This document shows positions 2,436 to 40,297 of a stretch of 64,000 nt of DNA, piece after piece. The notes beneath the pieces were generated by a model. That model did not search any database and had not been told where the DNA came from. It saw nothing but the letters and a program-made list of their open reading frames with translations. This DNA is from a virus: the IMG/VR virus record IMGVR_UViG_3300045988_163359; one strand, given 5' to 3'. The position numbers and the translations under genes are program-made. The number at the start of each line of letters is the position of its first letter. The stretch's first letter is position 1.

Positions 2436-2448
2436 TAGGAGAATGTTA

Positions 2449-2757
2449 ATGAAAAAAGTATTTATATCTCAACCAATGAGAGGATTAACCGATGAAGAAA
2501 TATTAGAAAAAAGAAGTGAAATAAAAAAAGATATAGAAACCAAAATAAACGAAGAAATAGAATTTATAGATTCGTTTTTACAAGATTATCCTGGAGAAAT
2601 TAATAAACATATACCAGTTTGGTACTTAGGTAAATCAATACAACTATTATCTCAAGCAGATATGATATATCTCGGAGAAGGTTGGGATAAAGCAAGAGGA
2701 TGTAAAATAGAATATGAAATAGCAAAAGCATACGGAATAAATATAATAGGTTGTTAG
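2449..2757 (+). CDS. DUF4406 / nucleoside 2-deoxyribosyltransferase-like protein
   Basis: About 100 aa. VFISQPMRG...DMIYLGEGWDKARGCKIEYEIAKAYG matches the DUF4406 pattern as I recall it. Confidence 0.5.
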   Translation: MKKVFISQPMRGLTDEEILEKRSEIKKDIETKINEEIEFIDSFLQDYPGEINKHIPVWYLGKSIQLLSQADMIYLGEGWDKARGCKIEYEIAKAYGINIIGC

Positions 2758-2766
2758 GAGGATAAT

Positions 2767-3024
2767 ATGGATAGACAAGAAGTTATAAATATATTTGCTC
2801 AAGAAATGGCTAAAACACAAAAGAAAGCAGATAAATTTTATTATAAACAAAATGACAAAGATATGGCTGCTTATTGTACAGACCATGCATTAGTTATAAA
2901 AGATTTAGCTGTTAAACTTGGTATATGTGACGAAGTTTACATAGAAGCTTATAAAATATATGATTTTAGAAATTCAGGTAAAACAGGATATACATTAAAA
3001 GATGGGAAAATAGTTAAGCTATAG
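2767..3024 (+). CDS. hypothetical protein
   Basis: AGGAGG RBS, 85 aa, no motif. Confidence 0.5.
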   Translation: MDRQEVINIFAQEMAKTQKKADKFYYKQNDKDMAAYCTDHALVIKDLAVKLGICDEVYIEAYKIYDFRNSGKTGYTLKDGKIVKL

Positions 3025-3039
3025 AATTGAAGGAGCAAC

Positions 3040-3192
3040 ATGAAAGATTTATTACTTAAAATAGGAGTAAGAATGGGCTGGGTTATAAGTCCAAACATCT
3101 TATTTAATTTAGCAACATATGGTGAAAACTCACCTTATTACAAAAGATATTATAAGAAATACCTAAAAAGAGATAAAAGGAGAAATTTATGA
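3040..3192 (+). CDS. small hypothetical protein (50 aa)
   Basis: Not in the ORF track. AGGAG RBS 5 nt upstream. Stop overlaps the next ATG (ATGA). Confidence 0.35.
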   Translation: MKDLLLKIGVRMGWVISPNILFNLATYGENSPYYKRYYKKYLKRDKRRNL

Positions 3193-3455
3193 ACGAACAA
3201 CAATTTTTAGATTGGTGTAAAGATGAAATTGTAAGTTATGTAAATCTAATGATAGATAAAACAGATAAAAATTACATAACAAAAGATGATGTATTTATGG
3301 TTTGGTGTTGCAAAACACTCCAAAATAATAAAGCATTACTAAGTACAACTTTATTTGACGGAATGTATTATGAATGTACATACAATGGAGATAAAAAAGA
3401 AATGTACATAGATGCTTATAAGAAATGGGAGAATTACAAAGTTGAGCAAAAATAA
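3189..3455 (+). CDS. conserved phage hypothetical protein
   Basis: 88 aa, translationally coupled. VWCCKTLQNNKALLSTT..YYECTYNGDKKEMYIDAYKK looks like a small family seen in Firmicute phages. Confidence 0.5.
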   Translation: MNEQQFLDWCKDEIVSYVNLMIDKTDKNYITKDDVFMVWCCKTLQNNKALLSTTLFDGMYYECTYNGDKKEMYIDAYKKWENYKVEQK

Positions 3456-3678
3456 GTATGGAAAAGAAGATTATGATTTCCTTTTAGGCATATATGCCTT
3501 TGTAGGAGTATACGCTCTAGCATACACAATATTTTCAATAGTATTAGCAATACTTCATATACATCTATCAAATGCTATAGACTGGATAGCAAGTATTGTT
3601 CTATCAATACTTAGTATTGTTTATGTAGTAAGAGTGAATATAAAAAGAACAGAATTGATAGAAAAAAAGAAGGAATAG
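3412..3678 (+). CDS. small membrane protein (start uncertain, possibly TTG 3442)
   Basis: Two hydrophobic helices (LLGIYAFVGVYALAYTIFSIVLAIL; WIASIVLSILSIVYVV). Confidence 0.45.
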   Translation: MLIRNGRITKLSKNKYGKEDYDFLLGIYAFVGVYALAYTIFSIVLAILHIHLSNAIDWIASIVLSILSIVYVVRVNIKRTELIEKKKE

Positions 3679-3679
3679 T

Positions 3680-3832
3680 ATGTTTGATATAAAACAATTA
3701 TTAGGACTATCTAAAGCAGGGGAGGTGAATTATATGTTACCATGCTATTGGAATGTAGAAAGTTTTAGTGAATATGTAAGAAGAATGCAAGGAATAAGTA
3801 AAAAGACTAAATGGAAAAGAAATAGAAGATAG
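3680..3832 (+). CDS. small hypothetical protein (50 aa)
   Basis: Not in the track. GAAGGA RBS. Fills the gap between neighbouring genes. Confidence 0.3.
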   Translation: MFDIKQLLGLSKAGEVNYMLPCYWNVESFSEYVRRMQGISKKTKWKRNRR

Positions 3833-3841
3833 GAGAATAAA

Positions 3842-4027
3842 ATGAGCGATTCTCAAAATAATACAAATCCTTTACATAAAGTTAGTATTAAAGGTACAAA
3901 AGAAGAATTTGAGTTAAAATTAGATGATTTTGAAATAAAAGGTATTACTGGTTATAAAATAACAAGTACTACAAATGATTTTACAAGGCTTGAACTTGAA
4001 TTAATTGTATCTGAAATAAATACATAA
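3842..4027 (+). CDS. hypothetical protein
   Basis: AGGAG RBS, 61 aa. Confidence 0.45.
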   Translation: MSDSQNNTNPLHKVSIKGTKEEFELKLDDFEIKGITGYKITSTTNDFTRLELELIVSEINT

Positions 4028-4146
4028 TTTTAACAAAGAGGTTTACATAATTCGACCTTCTAAAATCGATTTTAAGGTACTTGTAAAAAGTCCTTTGATA
4101 GTTTATACATTTGGAAATAAATAGAAATTACATAAAGGATGATTAA

Positions 4147-4338
4147 ATGGAAAAATTATTTAATTTTGTATCATTACCTTGTGATGCTATAGAAGTTAAA
4201 GTAATAAAAAGACCAAAACAGAAACCTTTAAAGAAACTAAAATTAAATGGTGCTACTTATTATTTATCTGAAGATGATGAAAATTATTATACTTTCATAT
4301 ATAAAAGTTTCGCTAAGGATAAAGCAAAAAGCAAGTAG
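4147..4338 (+). CDS. hypothetical protein (possibly the 5' part of a frameshifted gene, see findings)
   Basis: AAGGA RBS, 63 aa. Followed by a start-less open frame 4323-4498. Confidence 0.45.
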   Translation: MEKLFNFVSLPCDAIEVKVIKRPKQKPLKKLKLNGATYYLSEDDENYYTFIYKSFAKDKAKSK

Positions 4339-4500
4339 CAGCCAGTATATTCAACAAAGCAAAGTGTAAAAATGCAGATTGGTTTGAGTTAGCTCAATTA
4401 TACAACGATAAGATAAATGAGTATAATCAAAAATCTTATGTACATGAACAATATATCACAGATACAATATTTACCGAAATATATAAATTAACAAGATAAT

Positions 4501-5347: not shown

Positions 5348-6298
5348 ATGGCTAACACAATATCATATGCTCAAATTTTACAAAATGCATTAGACAAACA
5401 AATGGTACATGAATCATTGACAGGCTGGATGGATGCCAATGCAGGTCAAGTTAAATATAACGGTGGTAAAGAAGTTAAAATACCTCAATTATCAATGGAC
5501 GGACTTGCTAACTATGACAGACAAGCTGATAGTGGATATACTAAAGGATCTATCAAATACGAATACAAAACTTACACAATGACACAAGATAGAGGACGTA
5601 AATTCCAAATAGATTCTCAAGATGTTGATGAAACTAACTTTGTATTAACAGCAACAACAATCATGGGTGAATTTCAAAGAACTAAAGTTATACCTGAAGT
5701 AGATGCTTATAGATTAAGTAAATTAGCAACAACTGCTATGGGTGTAGCTAATGATGAAAATGTAGAATATGGATATACTGTAGCAAATTCAACTGTTATA
5801 GCTAAAATAAAAAAAGGTATAAAAACATTAAGAGAAAAATGCCATAATGGAACACTAGTTATTATGTGTAACTATGATACACAACTAGCTATAGAAGAAG
5901 CTGCATTAGGTAAATTAGCATCTGTATCTTTTTCTCAAGGTGGAATAAACACTAAAGTTCCAGCTATTGATGGATGCCCAATTATACCAGTTCCACAAAA
6001 TAGATTATACAGTGCAATACAATTATATGATGGTTCGACTAGTGGTCAAACTACTGGCGGATACATTAAAGCAACTTCTGGATTAGATGTTAACTTTTTA
6101 ATCATGCCTTTAGATTTACCTTTAGCAGTAACTAAACAAGATATCATGAGAATATTTGACCCTGAAACTAACCAAAGTGCAAATGCATGGGCTATGGACT
6201 ACAGAAGATACCATGATTTATGGGTATTAGAAAGCAAAAAAGAGGGGGTATATGCTAATATAAAAGATGCAAAACCTACTCAATCTGAAAGTCATTAG
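5348..6298 (+). CDS. major capsid protein
   Basis: 316 aa, AGGAGG RBS. Position after the scaffold gene. N-terminal MANTISYAQ..LTGWMDANAG resembles Firmicute siphovirus coat proteins. Confidence 0.75.
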   Translation: MANTISYAQILQNALDKQMVHESLTGWMDANAGQVKYNGGKEVKIPQLSMDGLANYDRQADSGYTKGSIKYEYKTYTMTQDRGRKFQIDSQDVDETNFVLTATTIMGEFQRTKVIPEVDAYRLSKLATTAMGVANDENVEYGYTVANSTVIAKIKKGIKTLREKCHNGTLVIMCNYDTQLAIEEAALGKLASVSFSQGGINTKVPAIDGCPIIPVPQNRLYSAIQLYDGSTSGQTTGGYIKATSGLDVNFLIMPLDLPLAVTKQDIMRIFDPETNQSANAWAMDYRRYHDLWVLESKKEGVYANIKDAKPTQSESH

Positions 6299-6310
6299 TT
6301 TGATTCTTTC

Positions 6311-6556
6311 ATGTTTGAAATAAAAAAAGAAAATGTTCATAGAACAGTAGAAACCATAGAACAGGCAAAAAAATATATTGCTGAAGGTTATGAATTAGTT
6401 CAAAATATCGACAACTCAGAGGAAAAATCCGAAATAATAGATTTAGATTCTTTAAAATATAATGAGTTAAAGAATTTAGCTAAAGAAAAAAAAGTTAAAG
6501 GCTATACAACACTGACAAAATCAGATTTAGTTAAAATTTTAAAGGAGTTGTTTTAA
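6311..6556 (+). CDS. Rho N-terminal (SAP-like) domain protein
   Basis: LKYNELKNLAKEKKVKGYTTLTKSDLVKILKEL is the Rho_N helix-extended-helix pattern. Such genes are common just after capsid genes. Confidence 0.6.
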   Translation: MFEIKKENVHRTVETIEQAKKYIAEGYELVQNIDNSEEKSEIIDLDSLKYNELKNLAKEKKVKGYTTLTKSDLVKILKELF

Positions 6557-10423: not shown

Positions 10424-11083
10424 ATGGCAGCAGATGGAAAAGTTGTTATAGAAGTTGAATTAAAATCTGATCAAGTTGAAGGTCAGTTAAATGAACTTAA
10501 AAATGCCTTTGCTGATTTAGGTGGTGTTGGTAAAGTATTTGGAGAAATGAGTTCTCTAGTTGGAACTTTTTCAAATACTTTTAAAGCATTAAGTGGAATT
10601 GTTGGACCAGTTGCAGCAGGAGTTGTTGCAGCAGTAACTACAATGGTAACTGCTTTTTCAAAATTATATGATGCTAGTAAACAAAATTTCTTTGAAAACT
10701 TGCAGAATATATCTGAAAAATTACAACCAGTTGTTGATATTGTTCAAAATGCTACAAACACCATTTTGGATTGCTTTAGTCAAGTTACAGATTTTTCATT
10801 TGATTTCAGCACTCTAATGGCAGATGCAATTGAATTTGAGAGTTCTATGGCTCGTGTGTCTGGTATAATGGGTGTTTTAGGTGATGATGCAAAGGTTTTG
10901 ACAGAAACAACAAGACAATACGGAGCTACCACTAGGTACACCAGTGTACAGGTGAGTGAAGCTTTTAGCTATATGGGTATGGCAGGATTTTCATTACAAG
11001 AGTCTCTTGCGTCAATACAAGATGTTTTAAATTTAACTACCATCGGTGCCACTGAACTCGGCATTGCCAGTGATATCGTGACT
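10424..11083 (+). CDS. tail tape measure protein, exon 1 of 3
   Basis: TP901-type TMP core begins here (..YGATTRYTSVQVSEAFSYMGMAGF..ASDIVT). The reading frame loses TMP character after 11083. Confidence 0.8.
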
Positions 11084-11377
11084 AAAAAATTGGTCGGTTT
11101 AGTAGAAATACTATTCAAAAAACATTCGGTGAATTGCTGGAAAGCTAAGTTAATATTGATACTACAAATTAATAATTAATATGCTAATCAGCAACCAAGC
11201 CATGGAAAGCCATAAAAGTACATGGAAGGTTCAGAGACTAGGAGAATGAATAGGCGAATAATAATTTCTCCCACGAGCGCCGAACACCTTAACAAGTAAA
11301 GTTGAAGGTGATGATATAGTCCCATCCTCTTATGAAAATAAGAGTTCTAGGATAAAGAGCCTAGATATAAGATAATG
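11084..11377 (+). ncRNA. group I intron 1 (ORF-less, 294 nt)
   Basis: 5' exon ends in U and can pair with GGTCG 11092-11096 (P1 with U:G). P7-like CAGAGACTAGG and GATATAGTC boxes. Ends in G. Shares the 16-mer TAGGATAAAGAGCCTA with intron 2. Confidence 0.7.
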
Positions 11378-11482
11378 GATGGTTTAACTGCAATGAACAT
11401 GTCTGCATCTCAAGCATCAAATTTCGTAGATTATATGGCAGCAACTATTACTCGTAGTAATACAACTGTTGAATTAATGGGT
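11378..11482 (+). CDS. tail tape measure protein, exon 2 of 3 (35 codons)
   Basis: DGLTAMNMSASQASNFVDYMAATITRSNTTVELMG continues the TMP core in frame with no start codon of its own. Confidence 0.75.
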
Positions 11483-12753
11483 AGACGTTTTGCCCATGTA
11501 AAAACTCTTTAATTCGGTGAAACACTAAGTTGACAAGATTAGTTAAGAACTTTATAATAATATTTAACAGTTTCCCCCATAAATTCAAAGGAGAGTGTTA
11601 AGTTGGTGAGAAGATTAACTGATGAAGAATTTAAAGAAAGATTATTAAATTATAATAATGGAGAATATGAAAATGTAGAACCATACATAAATAAAAGAAC
11701 TAAAATTTTATTTAAACATAAATGCGGAAAGAAATTTTATTCTTATCCAATGGATGTATTGTATGGGAAGAAACATTGCCCTGTATGTATTAAGAAAAAA
11801 ATAAGTGAATTAACTCGAAAACCAAAAGAAAAATTTCTTGAAGAATTTAATGAATTAGCAAAAGGAGAATATACACTTTTAACAGATTACGAAAAATCTA
11901 ATAAAAAAGTAATTATAAAACATAATGTTTGTGGGCATAAATTTGAAGTCACACCAAATAATTTTATAAGCAAGAAAAGTAGATGCCCATTATGTTTTGG
12001 TGGAAATATAAAAAAGACAAAAGAACAATTTAAACAAGAAATTTTAGAGTTAACAGATGGAGAATTAATAGTAATAGGTGATTATACAAACAAAAATACA
12101 TTAATAGAAGTATTACATACAGAATGTAATCAAGTTTTTATGGCATACCCTAAAAGCCTTCTAAGAGGTTGTAGTTGTTCTCATTGTAAAGAAAGTAAAG
12201 GGGAGAGGGAAGTCAAAAGGGTTTTAAAAAAATTAAATTTACAATTTAAAAAACAATATAGATTTAAAGATTGTAGAGGAAAAAAATATCCATTACCTTT
12301 TGATTTTGCTGTTATAAAAGATGATAAAATAGATTTTTTAATTGAATATGACGGAGAACAACACTTTAAACCTATACAATTTAGAGGTATAAATGATAAA
12401 AAAGCCCTTAAATTACATAAAGAAACGCTAGAAAGGGATAATATAAAAACAAAATATTGTCTTAATAAAAATATAAGCCTATTAAGAATACCTTATTATA
12501 ATTTTAATAAAATTGAAGAAATAATATGTCAATATGTCAATACCGAGCCAAGCTAGTTAGGAAACTACTAGAAGGTGTAACGACTAGGTAAAGTAACCTA
12601 AGAAAAAAGAACCTGTGTAGGTTCTTTTTTTATGGAAAAATACCCACGAACAGGAGTGATTTATTCTTAATTGAATAATGAAAGATATAGTCTAAACTAT
12701 ATGGAAACATATAGAGCATAGGATAAAGAGCCTATGGTTAATCACAAAAATTG
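11483..12753 (+). mobile_element. group I intron 2 with homing endonuclease ORF (1271 nt)
   Basis: Exon end ATGGGT pairs perfectly with GCCCAT 11492-11497 (U:G at the splice site). GACTAGG / GATATAGTC core boxes. Terminal G 12753. Confidence 0.75.
11603..12556 (+). CDS. intron-encoded homing endonuclease, Vsr/PD-(D/E)xK-like with three Zn-ribbon modules
   Basis: Three H..CG..F....P......CPxC repeats. C-terminal GEREVKRVL...FDFAV...IEYDGEQHF...RDNIK...LLRIPY resembles Vsr/DUF559/EDxHD-type nucleases. Confidence 0.6.
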   Translation: MVRRLTDEEFKERLLNYNNGEYENVEPYINKRTKILFKHKCGKKFYSYPMDVLYGKKHCPVCIKKKISELTRKPKEKFLEEFNELAKGEYTLLTDYEKSNKKVIIKHNVCGHKFEVTPNNFISKKSRCPLCFGGNIKKTKEQFKQEILELTDGELIVIGDYTNKNTLIEVLHTECNQVFMAYPKSLLRGCSCSHCKESKGEREVKRVLKKLNLQFKKQYRFKDCRGKKYPLPFDFAVIKDDKIDFLIEYDGEQHFKPIQFRGINDKKALKLHKETLERDNIKTKYCLNKNISLLRIPYYNFNKIEEIICQYVNTEPS

Positions 12754-15700
12754 GAAACAATGAAGTATGCCGGTTCAGTAGCTGGGACATTGGGCGTTTC
12801 TATGGATGATTTATCAGTTGCTATCGGTCTAATGGCGAATTCATCAGTAAAAGGAAGTCGTGCAGGGACTGCAATGAGAACATTGTTGGCAAATTTAAGT
12901 GCACCTACTGAAACCGTAGCAAAAGCTATGGATAAATACGGAATAGGACTTGTTACTGCGAAAGATGGTTCAGTTGACTTAGATAAAACATTAAGAAATT
13001 TAAGAAGTAGTTTAAAATCATTACCTTTAGTTGAACAAGCAGCTGCATGTAAAGATTTAGCTGGTAAAACAGGTATGACAGGTTTACTATCAATTGTCAA
13101 TGCTACGGATGATGCATATGATAGTTTAACTAATAGCGTACAAAACTCTACTCAGACAGTTTCTTATTGGAATCAAAATTTAGGAGAAGCAGGAGTTACT
13201 GGAAAAGAATGTAGTAAAAGAATAAACAACTTAAAAGAAGTTTTAAGTCAAACAGAATATTTAGGTGCTGCATTCAATATGACAACTCAAGATATGGCTT
13301 TAGCTTTACAAGTTTTAGGTTCTGATGCAAAAGTAACATCAAAGAATGTTGAAGATTTATTTGGCGTTTTAGATGCAATGAGAGACCCCACTCAATCACA
13401 GAAAAAAATTTTTAAAGAGTTAGGATTAAGTTATAGAGAAATTAAAGATGATGCTTTCGATTATAGTGCTACTTGCGATATGATCAATGAAAATACAAAA
13501 GGAATAGTAGATTCTTCTAAAGGTTTAAAAAACGTTGTATCTAAGAATGACTTAATAAAACAATTATATCCTAATATGTCACTTGAAAAAGCTAATGAAG
13601 TATTAAAAAAATATGGCATGACTGCTAAAACTCAATCTACTGGCCAAATAGATTTAATTGCAAATTTAAAAGAACTTAGAAGTGCTTTTAGTGGTATGGA
13701 TCAAGCTACTAGAGAACAAACGTTAAGTAACCTTGGATTATCAGATTCTTTAAGTGAAATAAATGAAGTATGTGGTTTATCTGACGAACAGTTTGATAAA
13801 TATTGCAAAAACTTAGAATTGGTAACAGGTTTATCTGAAAAAATGTCCCAAACAATGGACGAAACTACAAAATATTATTTATTAGTACTATCATCAGCAC
13901 TTCAAGATGTTGCTATACAAGGATTTGAATTTTTAAAACCATCTATACAATCTACAGCCGATGCATTAGCTAAATTTTTCACTGTATGGAGAAGTGGCAA
14001 TGAAGATGGTACTACAAAAAATAATCAAGCTTTATATACATTTGATAATTTTAAAAAAGCATTAGATAATTTACTCGAACATATAAAAAATGCAGATATA
14101 TCAGGAGCAATTCAACAGGCCTTTAGTGGAATTAATACTTTTATAACTCAAGGTGGATTGAGTAGAGTATTAGCTATCGGCAAAGAAATTATACATCAAA
14201 TTTGTCAAGGAATTATAAATAGTAAAGGCGATATAAGAGAAGGTATTTCAAGTGCTATTAAACAAATTTCAGAATTTGTAAAAGATGTTGCTCCAGAGAT
14301 AGAAGAGGCCGGTAAAGTTATTTTAGATGCATTAAGAGACGGAATAAAAAACAATTCAGACAATATACATGACGCTTTAGAGGCAGTGGCTTCTGTAATG
14401 AATACATGGATAGAAGGTAGCGAAGAAATAAAATCTTTAACGGGTAATTTCGCAGATATTTTCATTGACAGTTTTATTGAAAACTTAACTGACAGATTTA
14501 CTGGTAGAGCATCAGAACTTTGGCAAGCAATAACAAGTTGGCTTACTAATTCTGATTATAATTTTGATTTTCTTAGCCTTTTTAGTACTTCTTTAGGAAT
14601 GCCTAATTTCTTATATAAAAGCAATAAAGGTTTTATAGAAAGAATAAAAAAATGGTTTACTGGTGAATCTTATGCTGATGAAAAGACTGGTAATGAAAAA
14701 CCTCTTAATACTAAAGATTCTAATAGCAATAAAATAAACTCTAAACTTTCTAATATGGATACTAATGAAATAAAAGCATTACAAACACAATTAACAGCTT
14801 TACAGACAACAGTACAAAGTGTTTCAAATTCAATTTCTCAAGCATTTACATCATTACAAAATAATTTAAGAACTAGTTTAGTTGGATGTGCAAATATAGC
14901 AAGAAATCAATTTGTAAGTATATCAAACGTAGCTAGAAATCAATGCTTAAATGTATCTAATATAGTAAGAAACCAATTTCTATCTATTAGTAATATAATA
15001 CGTAATCAAATTACAAATGCTAGAAATGTTGTTACATCACAAATGATAAGCATGAAGAATGTTATATCAACTCAAGTTTCAGAGGCTAGGAATAAACTTA
15101 CATCTCAAATGATATCAATTAGAAATGTATCTAGAACACAGATTACACTTGCTAGAAATGCTGTTACATCTCAAATGATATCAATGAAAAGAGTTATAAC
15201 TACTCAATCAAGAGAAGCAAGAAATAACTTTACAAGACAAATGATAAGCATGAAAAATGTTGCTAGAACTCAATCAAGAGAAATCGGTCAACAAATGGCT
15301 AACGGTGTTACTCAAGGTATTCAAAGTGGTACATCAAGAGCAGTTAGTGCGGCAAGGAGTCTTGTTAATCAAGTTAATGCAGAAATGAAAAAGACTGCTA
15401 AAATAAATTCTCCTTCAAGAGTTACTACAGAATATGGTGAATTCATGGACGAAGGTTTAATTAACGGTTTAAAAAACAAATCAAAACAAGTATATGAAGC
15501 AGCTAAAAATGTAACTGCTGAAATGCAAAATGCAATGAAAATGGCTGTTCAATCTGAAACAACTAAGTTTTCATTAGAAGCTAGTAATAATAGTAATCTT
15601 AGAATTATAAATAGTGTAAGCAATAATACAGTAAAAGAAATCGCTAATTCATTAGGTGAAACCTTGAAAGAAACTATAGGAGATATAAGTGATAGACCTA

Positions 15701-15822
15701 TACAAGTCCAAGCTAACATGGATAAAGTAAAAGTTGTAGATATAATTGCAAAACCTATCGATGAAAAAAATAAACGAGATGAAAAAAGATTAAATAGATT
15801 GGAGGGAATAACAAGTGTTTAA
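12754..15822 (+). CDS. tail tape measure protein, exon 3 of 3
   Basis: ETMKYAGSVAGTLGVSMDDLSVAIGLMANSSVKGSRAGTAMRTLL is the conserved TMP core continuation. Long helical repeats follow. Confidence 0.85.
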   Translation, partial: ETMKYAGSVAGTLGVSMDDLSVAIGLMANSSVKGSRAGTAMRTLLANLSAPTETVAKAMDKYGIGLVTAKDGSVDLDKTLRNLRSSLKSLPLVEQAAACKDLAGKTGMTGLLSIVNATDDAYDSLTNSVQNSTQTVSYWNQNLGEAGVTGKECSKRINNLKEVLSQTEYLGAAFNMTTQDMALALQVLGSDAKVTSKNVEDLFGVLDAMRDPTQSQKKIFKELGLSYREIKDDAFDYSATCDMINENTKGIVDSSKGLKNVVSKNDLIKQLYPNMSLEKANEVLKKYGMTAKTQSTGQIDLIANLKELRSAFSGMDQATREQTLSNLGLSDSLSEINEVCGLSDEQFDKYCKNLELVTGLSEKMSQTMDETTKYYLLVLSSALQDVAIQGFEFLKPSIQSTADALAKFFTVWRSGNEDGTTKNNQALYTFDNFKKALDNLLEHIKNADISGAIQQAFSGINTFITQGGLSRVLAIGKEIIHQICQGIINSKGDIREGISSAIKQISEFVKDVAPEIEEAGKVILDALRDGIKNNSDNIHDALEAVASVMNTWIEGSEEIKSLTGNFADIFIDSFIENLTDRFTGRASELWQAITSWLTNSDYNFDFLSLFSTSLGMPNFLYKSNKGFIERIKKWFTGESYADEKTGNEKPLNTKDSNSNKINSKLSNMDTNEIKALQTQLTALQTTVQSVSNSISQAFTSLQNNLRTSLVGCANIARNQFVSISNVARNQCLNVSNIVRNQFLSISNIIRNQITNARNVVTSQMISMKNVISTQVSEARNKLTSQMISIRNVSRTQITLARNAVTSQMISMKRVITTQSREARNNFTRQMISMKNVARTQSREIGQQMANGVTQGIQSGTSRAVSAARSLVNQVNAEMKKTAKINSPSRVTTEYGEFMDEGLINGLKNKSKQVYEAAKNVTAEMQNAMKMAVQSETTKFSLEASNNSNLRIINSVSNNTVKEIANSLGETLKETIGDISDRPIQVQANMDKVKVVDIIAKPIDEKNKRDEKRLNRLEGITSV

Positions 15823-37439: not shown

Positions 37440-37618
37440 AATACAAGGATTGAACTAATATATATCAATAATCTTGTAATAACAGAACATATTCCAATTA
37501 ACAAGGTTCCTTCTTCAAGGGATTCCCTTTTGCCTAAGCTACTTGGGTTTGTGTAATCCTCCAAAGGCATCAATTCGGGGTTAAACCTCCCTACATACCG
37601 AATTAATCTTGCTAGTGA
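37440..37618 (-). ncRNA. putative tracrRNA / omega-RNA-derived scaffold with anti-repeat (37476-37508); boundaries uncertain
   Basis: Segment complementary to the CRISPR repeat (23/26 core identities, 2 G:U-compatible changes, 1 bulge). 7-bp hairpin AATTCGG/CCGAATT at 37572-37604. Immediately 3' of tnpB. Confidence 0.55.
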
Positions 37619-38761
37619 TTATTGTTCGGTTTGATAATTTGCTAAATTTATAGCAGCATTTAAATCCCTATCAATTACAGTACCACATTCAGGACAAGTA
37701 TATGTTCTATCACTTAATTTCAAGTCCTTCTTAATATGTCCACAATTAGAACAAGTTTTACTACTTGGATACCATCTATCTGCTTTTACTAGCTCAATAC
37801 CTTTATATTTACATTTATATTCAAGCTGTTTTGTTATTTCATATAAACCTTGTTTCCCTATTGATTCTGATAGATGTTTGTTTTTCATCATACCTTTTAT
37901 ATTTAAATCTTCTATTACGATTTTAGAAGGATTCATATTAACTATATCAGCAGTTATATTGTGATTATAGTTATTTCTAATATTAGCAAGTCTTTTGTGT
38001 AGTTTATTAATTTCCTTTTCAAGTTTCACTATATTATTTGTTTTATTATAGATTTTTCCTTGTCTATTTTGTTCATATTTTCTGCTCACCTGTCTTTGTA
38101 GTTTTTTTAGTCTTTTTTCTATTCTCTTTATATGAGCAGTTTTATTAATATTTTTATATTTTTTGCCTGTACTAAGTATTGCAGTATCTTTCAACCCTAA
38201 ATCAATTCCTATTGTTCCATTAAGTTCTGAACTAGTGTAATCTTCTTCATCTACTCCAACTGATATATACCAATTAAGTCCGTCAAAAGTAACTCTAGGA
38301 TTACTATATTTTTTCACAATAGGTACATAGTTTTTCCTACTTAGTTTCACTATCCCAATTTTCGGCAATTTAACTTGATTTTCGTTAAATCTAATTGCTT
38401 GATAATTAGGCATGAATGAAGGTGTTGAGTGTTTTTTGCTTTTAAATTTTGGATAACCTATTTTCTGACCTTTTTTACAACCTCGAAAAAAGTTTTTGAA
38501 TGATGTACAGGCATCTGTATATGCTCCAACAAGTGCTATACTATCAACTTCCTTTAGCCAACTATACTCATCTTGTTTTTTTAGTGCAGTTAAATGTTTA
38601 CTCATACCCATAGCACTTACAAATTTTTCCCCTTGTTCTCGTCTTTCCTTTTGGAAAGCTAAGCACCAGTTGTATACGAATCTAGTACACCCAGCAGTCC
38701 TGAACATCAATTCCATTTGTTCTTTTGTAGGTTCTAGTCTTACTTTATAACTTTTTATCAT
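37619..38761 (-). CDS. tnpB: TnpB-type RNA-guided RuvC nuclease (IS605 OrfB family), 380 aa
   Basis: MIKSYKVRLEPTKEQ N-terminus. RuvC-I GIDLGLKD, RuvC-II VIEDLNIKG. Zn ribbon CSNCGH..CPECG. RuvC-III DRDLNAAINL. Confidence 0.85.
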   Translation of the reverse strand: MIKSYKVRLEPTKEQMELMFRTAGCTRFVYNWCLAFQKERREQGEKFVSAMGMSKHLTALKKQDEYSWLKEVDSIALVGAYTDACTSFKNFFRGCKKGQKIGYPKFKSKKHSTPSFMPNYQAIRFNENQVKLPKIGIVKLSRKNYVPIVKKYSNPRVTFDGLNWYISVGVDEEDYTSSELNGTIGIDLGLKDTAILSTGKKYKNINKTAHIKRIEKRLKKLQRQVSRKYEQNRQGKIYNKTNNIVKLEKEINKLHKRLANIRNNYNHNITADIVNMNPSKIVIEDLNIKGMMKNKHLSESIGKQGLYEITKQLEYKCKYKGIELVKADRWYPSSKTCSNCGHIKKDLKLSDRTYTCPECGTVIDRDLNAAINLANYQTEQ

Positions 38762-39373: not shown

Positions 39374-40297
39374 TTAAAATTTTAATTTTGCAAACTTAAA
39401 TAATCCAATTGCAGTAGCCATTTGAGAATTATCAACTCTATCAAAGTCATCAGAAGGTTCAAGATTTAAAGAAGTTCCACCTGCTAAATATAACTTCATT
39501 TCATCTTTGTTTATCCAATTTTCTTCTACTATTTGATTTACTTTTTCAGAACCTAATTTATATGCTTTCTTTTTAAGTAGATCATAATCATCAGAACTAT
39601 CTATTTCGTTTACACTTTTTGCAATTCCACTTGCCATTAAATTATCTTGTATTATTTTTAGCATTGTACTGTTTCCGTATTCAACAGTATTAGATAATCT
39701 GTCATTAAATTGGAAACCTTTATCAAAATATGATAGTTCCATAGTTCTGAAACCAACGTTAACAAGTCCTACTGGCTTATCTTTATTTACCTTTCCATTA
39801 ATAGCATAGTATAAAGCCGCATCGCCCTCTCTAGCGATTGTTACATCTTCTATAAATATTTTCTTAGTTGCATTTGTTATATTGTCTTTTATAGTGATTG
39901 TTTCGCCTTTATATGTATTTACTATGTCAGCTAATACTGATTTCTTATAGTTTTTATATGGTACTCCAAATACTACTTTTACAGTATCTTTTACTGCTAT
40001 ATCGTTTAGTGCTGATGCAAATAATATCTTCATAGTATCACTTGTTTTTGAATCTTGTGAATTTCTTATAGAAGAATAAGATTCTCTTTCTGCTAATAAA
40101 CCAACGAAATAGTCTTCACCTTCTATATTTAAGTATTTAGGTTTTTCGTAATTTTCAAAGTCAACTTTACCTGAACGTCCATCACCATATACTGACTTAA
40201 ATATTGTTTGTTTTGCCTCTCCATCTACTTCTGTATAAGCCTTAATGTAACCTCTACCGCCATCAAAACCTATAAATTGAACATCTTTTTTAGCCAT
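39374..40297 (-). CDS. parM: ParM/Alp-type actin-like plasmid segregation ATPase
   Basis: FIGFDGGRGYIKAY phosphate-1 motif, VNVGFRTMEL, YLAGGTS adenosine motif. 307 aa. Confidence 0.7.
   Translation of the reverse strand: MAKKDVQFIGFDGGRGYIKAYTEVDGEAKQTIFKSVYGDGRSGKVDFENYEKPKYLNIEGEDYFVGLLAERESYSSIRNSQDSKTSDTMKILFASALNDIAVKDTVKVVFGVPYKNYKKSVLADIVNTYKGETITIKDNITNATKKIFIEDVTIAREGDAALYYAINGKVNKDKPVGLVNVGFRTMELSYFDKGFQFNDRLSNTVEYGNSTMLKIIQDNLMASGIAKSVNEIDSSDDYDLLKKKAYKLGSEKVNQIVEENWINKDEMKLYLAGGTSLNLEPSDDFDRVDNSQMATAIGLFKFAKLKF

Follow-up and report, generated by a model that had tools for sequence, protein, structure and literature searches.

The interrupted tape-measure gene and its exon junctions

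The stretch of viral DNA analysed here, 64,000 nucleotides (nt) in length (IMG/VR record IMGVR_UViG_3300045988_163359; hereafter the window), contains a TP901-type tape-measure gene whose coding sequence is distributed over three exons. The two interruptions, separated by an exon of just 105 nt, are group I introns, and the second encloses an open reading frame (ORF) for a putative homing endonuclease. The region comprises the following features:

10424-11083, + strand: tape-measure exon 1, 220 codons; last base U 11083
11084-11377, + strand: intron 1, ORF-less group I intron of 294 nt; terminal G 11377
11378-11482, + strand: tape-measure exon 2, 35 codons, DGLTAMNMSASQASNFVDYMAATITRSNTTVELMG; last base U 11482
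11483-12753, + strand: intron 2, group I intron of 1271 nt with a homing-endonuclease cassette in L5, the loop of P5; terminal G 12753
11530-11558, + strand: sigma-70 promoter-like site, TTGACA-17-TATAAT, with 12/12 consensus matches, upstream of the endonuclease ORF
11603-12556, + strand: homing endonuclease ORF, 317 amino acids (aa); start TTG 11603 or GTG 11606, with the ribosome-binding site AAAGGAGAG upstream
12602-12631, + strand: terminator-like hairpin (A-run, GAACCU, GUGU loop, AGGUUC, U-run) at the P7.2 position
12754-15822, + strand: tape-measure exon 3, 1022 codons plus stop

The preliminary description of this DNA had placed the splice junctions at 11083/11378 and 11482/12754, restoring one frame of 1277 codons (220+35+1022), and regarded the conserved TP901-type core as interrupted twice. 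On translation, the joined exons (3834 nt) encoded 1277 aa with zero internal stops, as proposed. The spliced protein matched the Pfam family PF10145 (PhageMin_Tail) in one stretch at 156 bits (E = 1.4e-45; cut-off 33.2 bits), spliced-protein residues 161-359 covering profile positions 2-201 of 201. The next gene encodes Dit (PHROG 202, E = 2.8e-69) and is followed by Tal, so that both the full-length PF10145 match above the cut-off and the gene position identify a TP901-type tape-measure gene. Furthermore, five PHROG tape-measure profiles stop at the end of exon 1, at profile position N, and resume at the start of exon 3, at N+36, leaving a gap of 35 positions that equals the length of exon 2. 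The continuity of the PF10145 and PHROG profiles after splicing bears out the double interruption of the core.

The exon boundaries were fixed with the aid of an intron-less allele located on a 65.9-kb ENA scaffold (L001), which blastn aligned to the window in three pieces of 96-97% identity:

window 10424-11083 = L001 3001-3660, 97.1% identity, ending exactly at 11083
window 11378-11482 = L001 3661-3765, 97.1% identity
window 12754-15822 = L001 3766-6837, 95.8% identity, starting exactly at 12754

Because these pieces abut exactly, the proposed splice sites are right to the nucleotide. The same junctions were recovered at the protein level, where near-identical database proteins are continuous at DIVT|DGLT and ELMG|ETMK. 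The spliced product is covered over 100% of its length by 22 protein clusters (1257-1278 aa, 89-97% identity), and the three of these whose sequences were read (P0001, P0004 and P0022) cross both junctions unbroken, as ASDIVTDGLTAMN and VELMGETMKYAG. The residues assigned to exon 2 are present in such homologues, with 35 of 35 identical in the intron-less P0001. Among more distant phages, a single tblastn piece covered at least 80% of a 259-aa query spanning both junctions in 812 GenBank phage records, the best match being Clostridioides difficile phage phiMMP02 (48.6% identity); a megablast search of the region against GenBank phages returned zero matches.

The C-terminal third of the tape-measure protein also contains tandem-like repeats (14981-15273) built from NxARNxxTSQMISxKxV units, in which neighbouring blocks of 130-160 nt show 72-73% identity by blastn. 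This is a typical tape-measure repeat structure, and alleles vary in length at these repeats (1262 vs 1278 aa).

Predicted ribozyme cores and the putative endonuclease cassette

The hallmarks of group I introns, namely a P1 helix with U·G at the splice site, a terminal G, P10 and the core helices, were found in both introns. As described previously, the upstream exons end in U (11083 and 11482) and the introns in G (11377 and 12753). The guide pairings claimed for the 5' splice sites were also found: UGACU (11079-83) pairs with GGUCG (11092-96) in intron 1, and AUGGGU (11477-82) with GCCCAU (11492-97) in intron 2, each placing U·G at a splice site whose position was fixed independently by L001. 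P10 comprises a weak 3-bp pairing in intron 1 (AUU 11089-91 with GAU 11378-80) and 5 bp in intron 2 (GUUUU 11487-91 with GAAAC 12754-58). Core helices P3 to P9, including the P3/P7 pseudoknot, were assigned in both introns, with P7 formed by GACUA/UAGUC in each, and minimum free energy (MFE) folds recovered P1, P3, P5, P6a, P7.1, P8, P9 and P9.1. Both are phage-type group I introns, probably with a subgroup IA-like architecture.

Intron 1 matched the Rfam family RF00028 (Intron_gpI) over positions 11073-11344 with 106 bits (E = 1.6e-26), well above the gathering threshold of 50 bits, in agreement with its earlier description as an ORF-less group I intron of 294 nt. The Rfam alignment drew the same P1. 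Its remaining helices, read manually from the sequence, the Rfam alignment and the MFE fold, are:

P2, 11100-04/11109-13; P3, 11125-31/11278-84; P4, 11135-40/11188-93; P5, 11144-84
P6, 11194-95/11229-30; P6a, 11200-04/11221-25; P7, 11236-40/11317-21; P7.1, 11241-46/11266-71
P8, 11286-93/11301-09; P9, 11327-33/11338-44; P9.1, 11347-51/11360-64

Most of these helices were recovered in an unconstrained MFE fold (z = -3.97). Downstream of P7, one clear hairpin (11241-46/11266-71) precedes the 3' strand of P3.

For intron 2, an IMG/VR scan with a 16-mer shared by the two introns retrieved 272-nt ORF-less alleles from the sibling phages L015, L091 and L123. The L015 allele (6179-6421) matched RF00028 with 59.8 bits (E = 2.4e-12), which upholds the description of the 1271-nt intron 2 as an ORF-bearing group I intron. 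The window copy aligns to the L015 allele over its first 51 nt and last 232 nt; 0.99 kb in the window stands in place of approximately 11 nt of the P5 loop. Once its ORF was deleted, the window intron showed 81% global identity to the L015 allele, or 88% relative to the shorter sequence. The elements of intron 2, taken from the Rfam alignment of the L015 allele and manual reading, are:

P3, 11504-09/12652-57 (ACUCUU/AGGAGU); J3/4, AAU; P4, 11514-19/12541-46 (UCGGUG/UACCGA)
P5, 11530-35/12527-32 (UUGACA/UGUCAA); P6, 12547-48/12575-76; P6a, 12553-60/12565-71
P7, 12582-86/12688-92; P7.2, 12602-31; P8, 12661-66/12673-78
P9, 12697-12703/12708-14, GAAA-capped; P9.1, 12717-22/12731-36

The fold of intron 2 is supported by compensatory changes between alleles. 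P6a is formed by CUAGU(U)AG/CUACUAG (window), ACUU(U)ACA/UGUAAGU (L015) or UCAA(U)AAG/CUUUUGA (L121), so that 7 of 7 pairs differ among the three while the pairing and the bulged U are kept; P5 likewise shows compensatory changes. These changes were judged helix by helix, by inspection, because MAFFT misaligned P1/P2 and P8 among the intron-2 relatives. The ORF-deleted construct gave an unconstrained MFE fold with z = -5.94. In intron 2, the interval from P7 to the 3' strand of P3 contains two hairpins, one of them short and the other, at 12602-31, long.

Following the established group I mechanism, each transcribed intron would fold into a P3-P9 ribozyme core, its internal guide pairing with the end of the upstream exon to form P1, in which U·G marks the point of cleavage. 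Exogenous guanosine would cut the 5' splice site, the guide would align the downstream exon through the P10 pairings given above, and the exons would be ligated after the terminal G. Two such reactions would generate the 3834-nt ORF for the 1277-aa tape-measure protein. Both introns are thus predicted to splice, a prediction drawn from the sequence.

The P5 loop of intron 2 holds what appears to be an expression cassette, consisting of a consensus promoter, a ribosome-binding site and the 317-aa ORF; a terminator-like hairpin comes after it, at the P7.2 position. Parts of the cassette coincide with ribozyme helices: the promoter-like -35 box TTGACA (11530) doubles as the 5' strand of P5, the last endonuclease codons overlap P5', P4' and P6a, and the TAG stop codon (12554-56) lies inside the 5' strand of P6a. 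The hairpin at 12602-31 forms a 13-bp stem in the MFE fold and attracts weak Rfam matches to terminator-containing small RNA families; similar hairpins occur in the endonuclease-bearing introns of L070 and L041, and none in the ORF-less introns of L015 and L121. Promoter and terminator functions are best regarded as putative. We also observed that the hairpin resembles a bidirectional intrinsic terminator.

The protein encoded in intron 2 matched PHROG 559 (E = 1.3e-74) and PHROGs annotated as 'homing endonuclease' and 'intron encoded nuclease', and Pfam placed a DUF4379 zinc finger (26.2 bits) in its N-terminal part. NCBIfam yielded zero families for it. It has 1487 homologues, its 99%-identity cluster holds 40 sequences, and relatives are intron-encoded in phages that include Twort, AR9/PBS1 and Lactococcus phage 949. 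In an alignment of 36 homologues, three H..C..C..C zinc motifs, D234, E248, H254 and K282 were invariant, and D250 and D279 were conserved in at least 90%. An AlphaFold (AF2) model of residues 196-317 reached a pLDDT (predicted local distance difference test) of 95.2, and Foldseek matched this C-terminal domain best to Escherichia coli Vsr (1cw0_A, probability 1.00, TM 0.70) and also to the catalytic domain of I-Bth0305I (3r3p_B, probability 0.99, TM 0.57/0.69). Foldseek with the full-length three-domain model returned weak, scattered matches only. A Vsr signature has been described for intron-encoded PHROG 559 proteins (PMC11878797). The endonuclease has three zinc-finger repeats and, according to the model, a C-terminal Vsr-like nuclease domain; E248, D250, H254 and D279 are candidate equivalents of the EDxHD catalytic residues, and the activity and target of the protein are likewise predicted. 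Presumably, it cuts intron-less tape-measure alleles during co-infection, and recombinational repair would then copy the intron into them (homing).

Distribution, origin and alternative explanations

All four combinations of presence and absence of the two introns were found among sibling phages:

neither group I intron: L001, L002
both introns, with the endonuclease in intron 2: window, L003, L004
both introns, ORF-free: L015, L091
intron 2 only: L123
intron 1 only: L132, L133 (with a 321-aa HNH endonuclease)

Accordingly, the segment of intron 1 is missing from L001 and L123, and that of intron 2 from L001 and L132. The empty sites of L001 are identical to the window exons from -19 to +11 at junction 1 and from -42 to +14 at junction 2; the L001 empty site that is the candidate substrate of the 317-aa endonuclease reads GAATTAATGGGT|GAAACAATGAAG. 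Independent, endonuclease-driven gain and loss would produce this pattern and such intact empty sites. The natural series (empty, each intron alone, both, with and without endonuclease, and a group II intron at a third site) is well suited to the study of intron gain and loss and of co-conversion.

Several observations on relatives accompany this series. L132 (1665-2784) and L133 carry, at the same site, a homologue of intron 1 of approximately 90% identity whose P5 loop encodes the 321-aa HNH endonuclease (Pfam HNH, 29.6 bits), the cassette being equipped with a terminator hairpin as well as a promoter-like site; these phages lack intron 2. Since the sibling intron carries an endonuclease, intron 1 of the window is a derivative without it. 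In L005 (4365-5045) and L006, the same tape-measure gene contains an ORF-less 681-nt group II intron at YMGM|AGF, with GUACG...AU ends and 64 bits to Rfam RF00029 on domains V/VI; this site lies approximately 100 nt upstream, and both group I introns are absent from these phages. About 27 of 120 listed protein clusters begin MEIIHKVYQSFTYRY|AGFSLQ, the N-terminal signature of the group II intron. L095 (8955-10740) has a more divergent tape-measure gene with two group I introns approximately 100 nt apart, an ORF-less one at YM|AGW (Rfam 65.8 bits) and an intron-1-like one with an HNH endonuclease at DILT|DDLT, so that closely spaced intron pairs recur in the tape-measure domain. Proteins starting MEPQIS|GTASDIV (P0105, P0107) were considered as evidence of a further intron site and rejected, as the L134 DNA lacks an insert. 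In this intron-less allele (L134 2382-6093), gene calling yields a 215-aa ORF that overlaps one of 1030 aa, and the exon-1 alignment shows a 3-nt length difference, an apparent frameshift or assembly error.

Among the loci examined, group I introns occupy at least five positions within approximately 150 codons: YM|AG, DIVT|DGL, ELMG|ETMK, ANSG|IKAS and ~KGSR|AGTA. One speculative extension, to which we give limited credence, is that the PhageMin_Tail core of tape-measure genes is a general and heavily used landing pad for self-splicing introns in phages of Firmicutes and the gut. Introns so closely spaced may not be independent of one another; an ORF-less intron 1, lying 105 nt from the cleavage site of intron 2, could spread by co-conversion when its neighbour's site is cut.

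The preliminary description had gone further and called the introns 'therefore paralogous' on account of shared core boxes and a common 16-mer. The strings themselves are present in both introns: within the 64 kb, GATATAGTC occurs only at 11313-21 and 12684-92, and GGATAAAGAGCC only at 11350-61 and 12721-32, the latter string against 0.17 expected by chance. The core boxes, the GAAA-capped P9 and the identical 16-mer hairpin would all be explained if one intron had been duplicated or transposed from the other within the gene; the global identity of the two (57%) exceeds that of shuffled controls (49 ± 1.6%), and published related tape-measure introns of 80% identity have been retargeted through P1 (PMC2504315). 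Nevertheless, the local alignment score between the two introns was only 82, whereas intron 1 scored 387, 228, 208, 179 and 159 against introns of L095, L074, L069, L036 and L016, respectively, and intron 2 scored 221-236 against those of L037, L055, L121 and L096. The 16-mer is class-wide, since 77 of its 128 exact matches (in loci from the IMG/VR 16-mer scan plus five further tape-measure loci) directly follow a GATATAGTC-type P7 strand, the introns concerned belonging to a variety of genes. Moreover, P2 is present in intron 1 only, and the 10-mer AUUCGGUGAA (11124-11133 and 11512-11521) is placed in different elements by the Rfam alignments, corresponding to P3 of intron 1 but to J3/4 and P4 of intron 2. 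The endonuclease families also differ (HNH for intron 1, Vsr-like for intron 2), and the two introns are present or absent independently in siblings. A twin origin within this gene is therefore improbable, and the claim of paralogy is unsupported except in a very loose sense; from the closer relatives elsewhere, the class-wide 16-mer and the differences in P2, AUUCGGUGAA and endonuclease, we conclude that the introns, although both belong to a single large class of phage introns, are most probably separate members of it that colonised the gene independently.

Still less probable is that the gene is truly split or dead, the inserts being decayed, non-splicing remnants and the products separate fragments (a 251-aa and a 1023-aa ORF) or a defective phage. 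Gene callers do annotate separate ORFs here (of 251 aa, 45 aa and 1021-1023 aa, besides an 'HNH endonuclease'), position 12751 offers a TTG in frame with exon 3, intron 2 contains a terminator-like hairpin, and splicing is a prediction at this locus. Against this explanation, exon 2 lacks an independent start context and yet has 35 of 35 residues as in intron-less alleles; both introns retain all core helices, P1, P10 and the terminal G; the gene was found with introns in several assemblies, of 24-78 kb, that are independent of one another; and the endonuclease ORF is intact and belongs to a 99%-identity cluster of 40 sequences. About 55 of 120 listed 90%-identity clusters begin at the exon-3 methionine, and approximately 80 of the 120 most similar listed database clusters are truncated tape-measure fragments, so that tail-length prediction, protein clustering and tape-measure-based taxonomy are distorted for this group of gut phages. 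Finally, assembly or chimera artefacts, inteins or other insertion elements are hardly credible, even though the data are metagenome-derived and a nuclease-carrying insert could be a free-standing mobile cassette, given that assemblies of different samples in ENA, Logan and IMG/VR agree on the structure, that the stop codons which the inserts hold in the tape-measure frame mean that they cannot be inteins, and that covariance-model matches and exact P1/P10 pairing point specifically to group I introns.

We thus consider it highly probable that this ~66-kb human-gut siphophage carries a TP901-type tape-measure gene with two independently acquired group I introns, located in its best-conserved portion (the PhageMin_Tail core) and spliced as mapped. 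Some observations pull in the other direction. Rfam did not detect the window copy of intron 2, even in a permissive run over 11380-12800 (E <= 10), which gave chance or terminator-like matches only; the covariance models thus recognised intron 1 (106 bits) and the L015 allele of intron 2 (59.8 bits), and missed the window copy because the 0.99-kb endonuclease cassette fills its P5 loop. The family assignment of that copy is accordingly drawn from homology to the ORF-less allele together with manual helix assignment, and should be read as predicted; the intron also lacks P2. The terminator-like hairpin could lower read-through into exon 3. As for the endonuclease, the Foldseek E-values for the nuclease domain were modest (6.6e-3) despite a probability of 1.00, and phmmer and profile searches of the protein against PDB sequences found nothing meaningful. 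The host is probably a member of the Peptostreptococcaceae such as Intestinibacter, on the basis of one metagenome-assembled genome label, and a tape-measure scan of GTDB representative genomes detected no integrated copy or related prophage.

The window represents a nearly complete siphophage genome of approximately 66 kb from the human gut. In the GTDB representatives, the tape-measure scan retrieved distant relatives only (33% identity, in Veillonella and Bacillus). Elsewhere in the window, we noted the following:

2443-4340: midway through the head module, a run of approximately eight short ORFs of 50-104 aa, flanked by genes for the minor head protein and the scaffold
37507-38761, - strand: segment with a TnpB gene (Pfam OrfB_IS605, HTH_OrfB_IS605 and Cas12f1-like TNB; PHROG 506, E = 1.7e-126)
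37567-37507: Rfam RAGATH-18 RNA (62 bits), directly 3' of TnpB
39374-40297, - strand: actin-like segregation protein (Pfam ALP_N, E = 3.8e-18; PHROG 'partition protein')

TnpB and the RAGATH-18 RNA look like a phage-borne IS605/IS607-type TnpB with its associated 3' RNA. The actin-like protein, and the finding that GTDB representative genomes hold no integrated relatives, are a hint that the prophage may be maintained like a plasmid.

Relation to known systems

Among known systems, I-Bth0305I, the EDxHD prototype (PDB 3r3p; PMC3239194), is likewise encoded in P5 of a phage group I intron and shares with the window endonuclease a C-terminal Vsr-like nuclease domain, as judged by Foldseek. Neither phmmer nor hmmsearch detected sequence similarity between the two proteins. 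The Vsr-like fold and candidate E/D/H/D residues of the EDxHD group were found in the window protein; its N-terminus, however, consists of three DUF4379-type zinc-finger repeats instead of the NUMOD/HTH module of I-Bth0305I (PMC3239194). We therefore call its nuclease domain Vsr-like, joined to a DNA-binding module of another kind, and refrain from placing the protein in the I-Bth0305I architecture. The combination of zinc fingers with a Vsr-like domain is widespread and biochemically uncharacterised, and intron 2 adds a further case.

The Twort gene orf142, which encodes a tail tube protein, contains three group I introns and undergoes exon skipping, according to Landthaler & Shub (1999) as cited in PMC11878797. 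It resembles the present case in having several closely spaced group I introns in one structural gene of a phage tail, and intron 2 shows an 86% match to the Twort 3' core, which comprises P7', P9 and the hairpin of the 16-mer. The gene is different, Twort is a myovirus, and exon skipping was, as that source reports it, demonstrated there experimentally. As exon 2 of the window comprises exactly 35 codons, its omission by Twort-like exon skipping would keep the reading frame and yield a variant tape-measure protein.

The preliminary description had considered that twin introns in a tail length-ruler gene 'stand out'. In prophages of the B. cereus group, tape-measure genes carry group I introns at three sites (TMP-IVS1, IVS2, IVS3a and IVS3b), which have IA1/IA2 structures, include copies with HNH or GIY-YIG endonucleases, and have, among related copies, been retargeted through P1 (Tourasse & Kolstø 2008, PMC2504315). 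These prophages share with the window the host gene and IA-type introns in the conserved tape-measure protein, with up to two introns per gene (IVS1 and IVS3a in E33L), ORF-less and endonuclease-bearing versions, differing endonuclease families and a patchy presence. The window differs in deriving from a gut Clostridia-type phage of 29% GC, in the spacing of its introns, just 105 nt apart, and in an endonuclease that is Vsr-like rather than HNH or GIY-YIG.

Tape-measure genes of the Lactobacillus delbrueckii phage JCL1032 (EU409559) and the C. perfringens phages phiCP13O, phiCP34O and CPQ4 also contain introns. The nearest isolated-phage matches were JCL1032 (82% over 44% of intron 2), CPQ4 (77%) and phiCP13O (70% over 63% of intron 1). 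The JCL1032 tape measure is annotated as a two-piece join, and those of phiCP13O, phiCP34O and CPQ4 as two coding sequences. Each of these four phages has a single intron, located approximately 40 codons downstream at G(S/A)(R/K)|(A/G)GTA(L/M)R, a motif that is unbroken in the window. Introns related to intron 2 were also found in metagenomes, at LMANSG|IKASQAGT and IKAS|QAGT; they carry an endonuclease of its family in the corresponding loop. In view of the B. cereus-group introns, with two per gene and retargeting through P1, and of JCL1032 and phiCP13O, the claim that the twin introns stand out is unsupported. Our understanding of phage introns is left unchanged by this locus; the intron-interrupted tape-measure gene is an already known phage feature, to which the window adds a well-resolved case.

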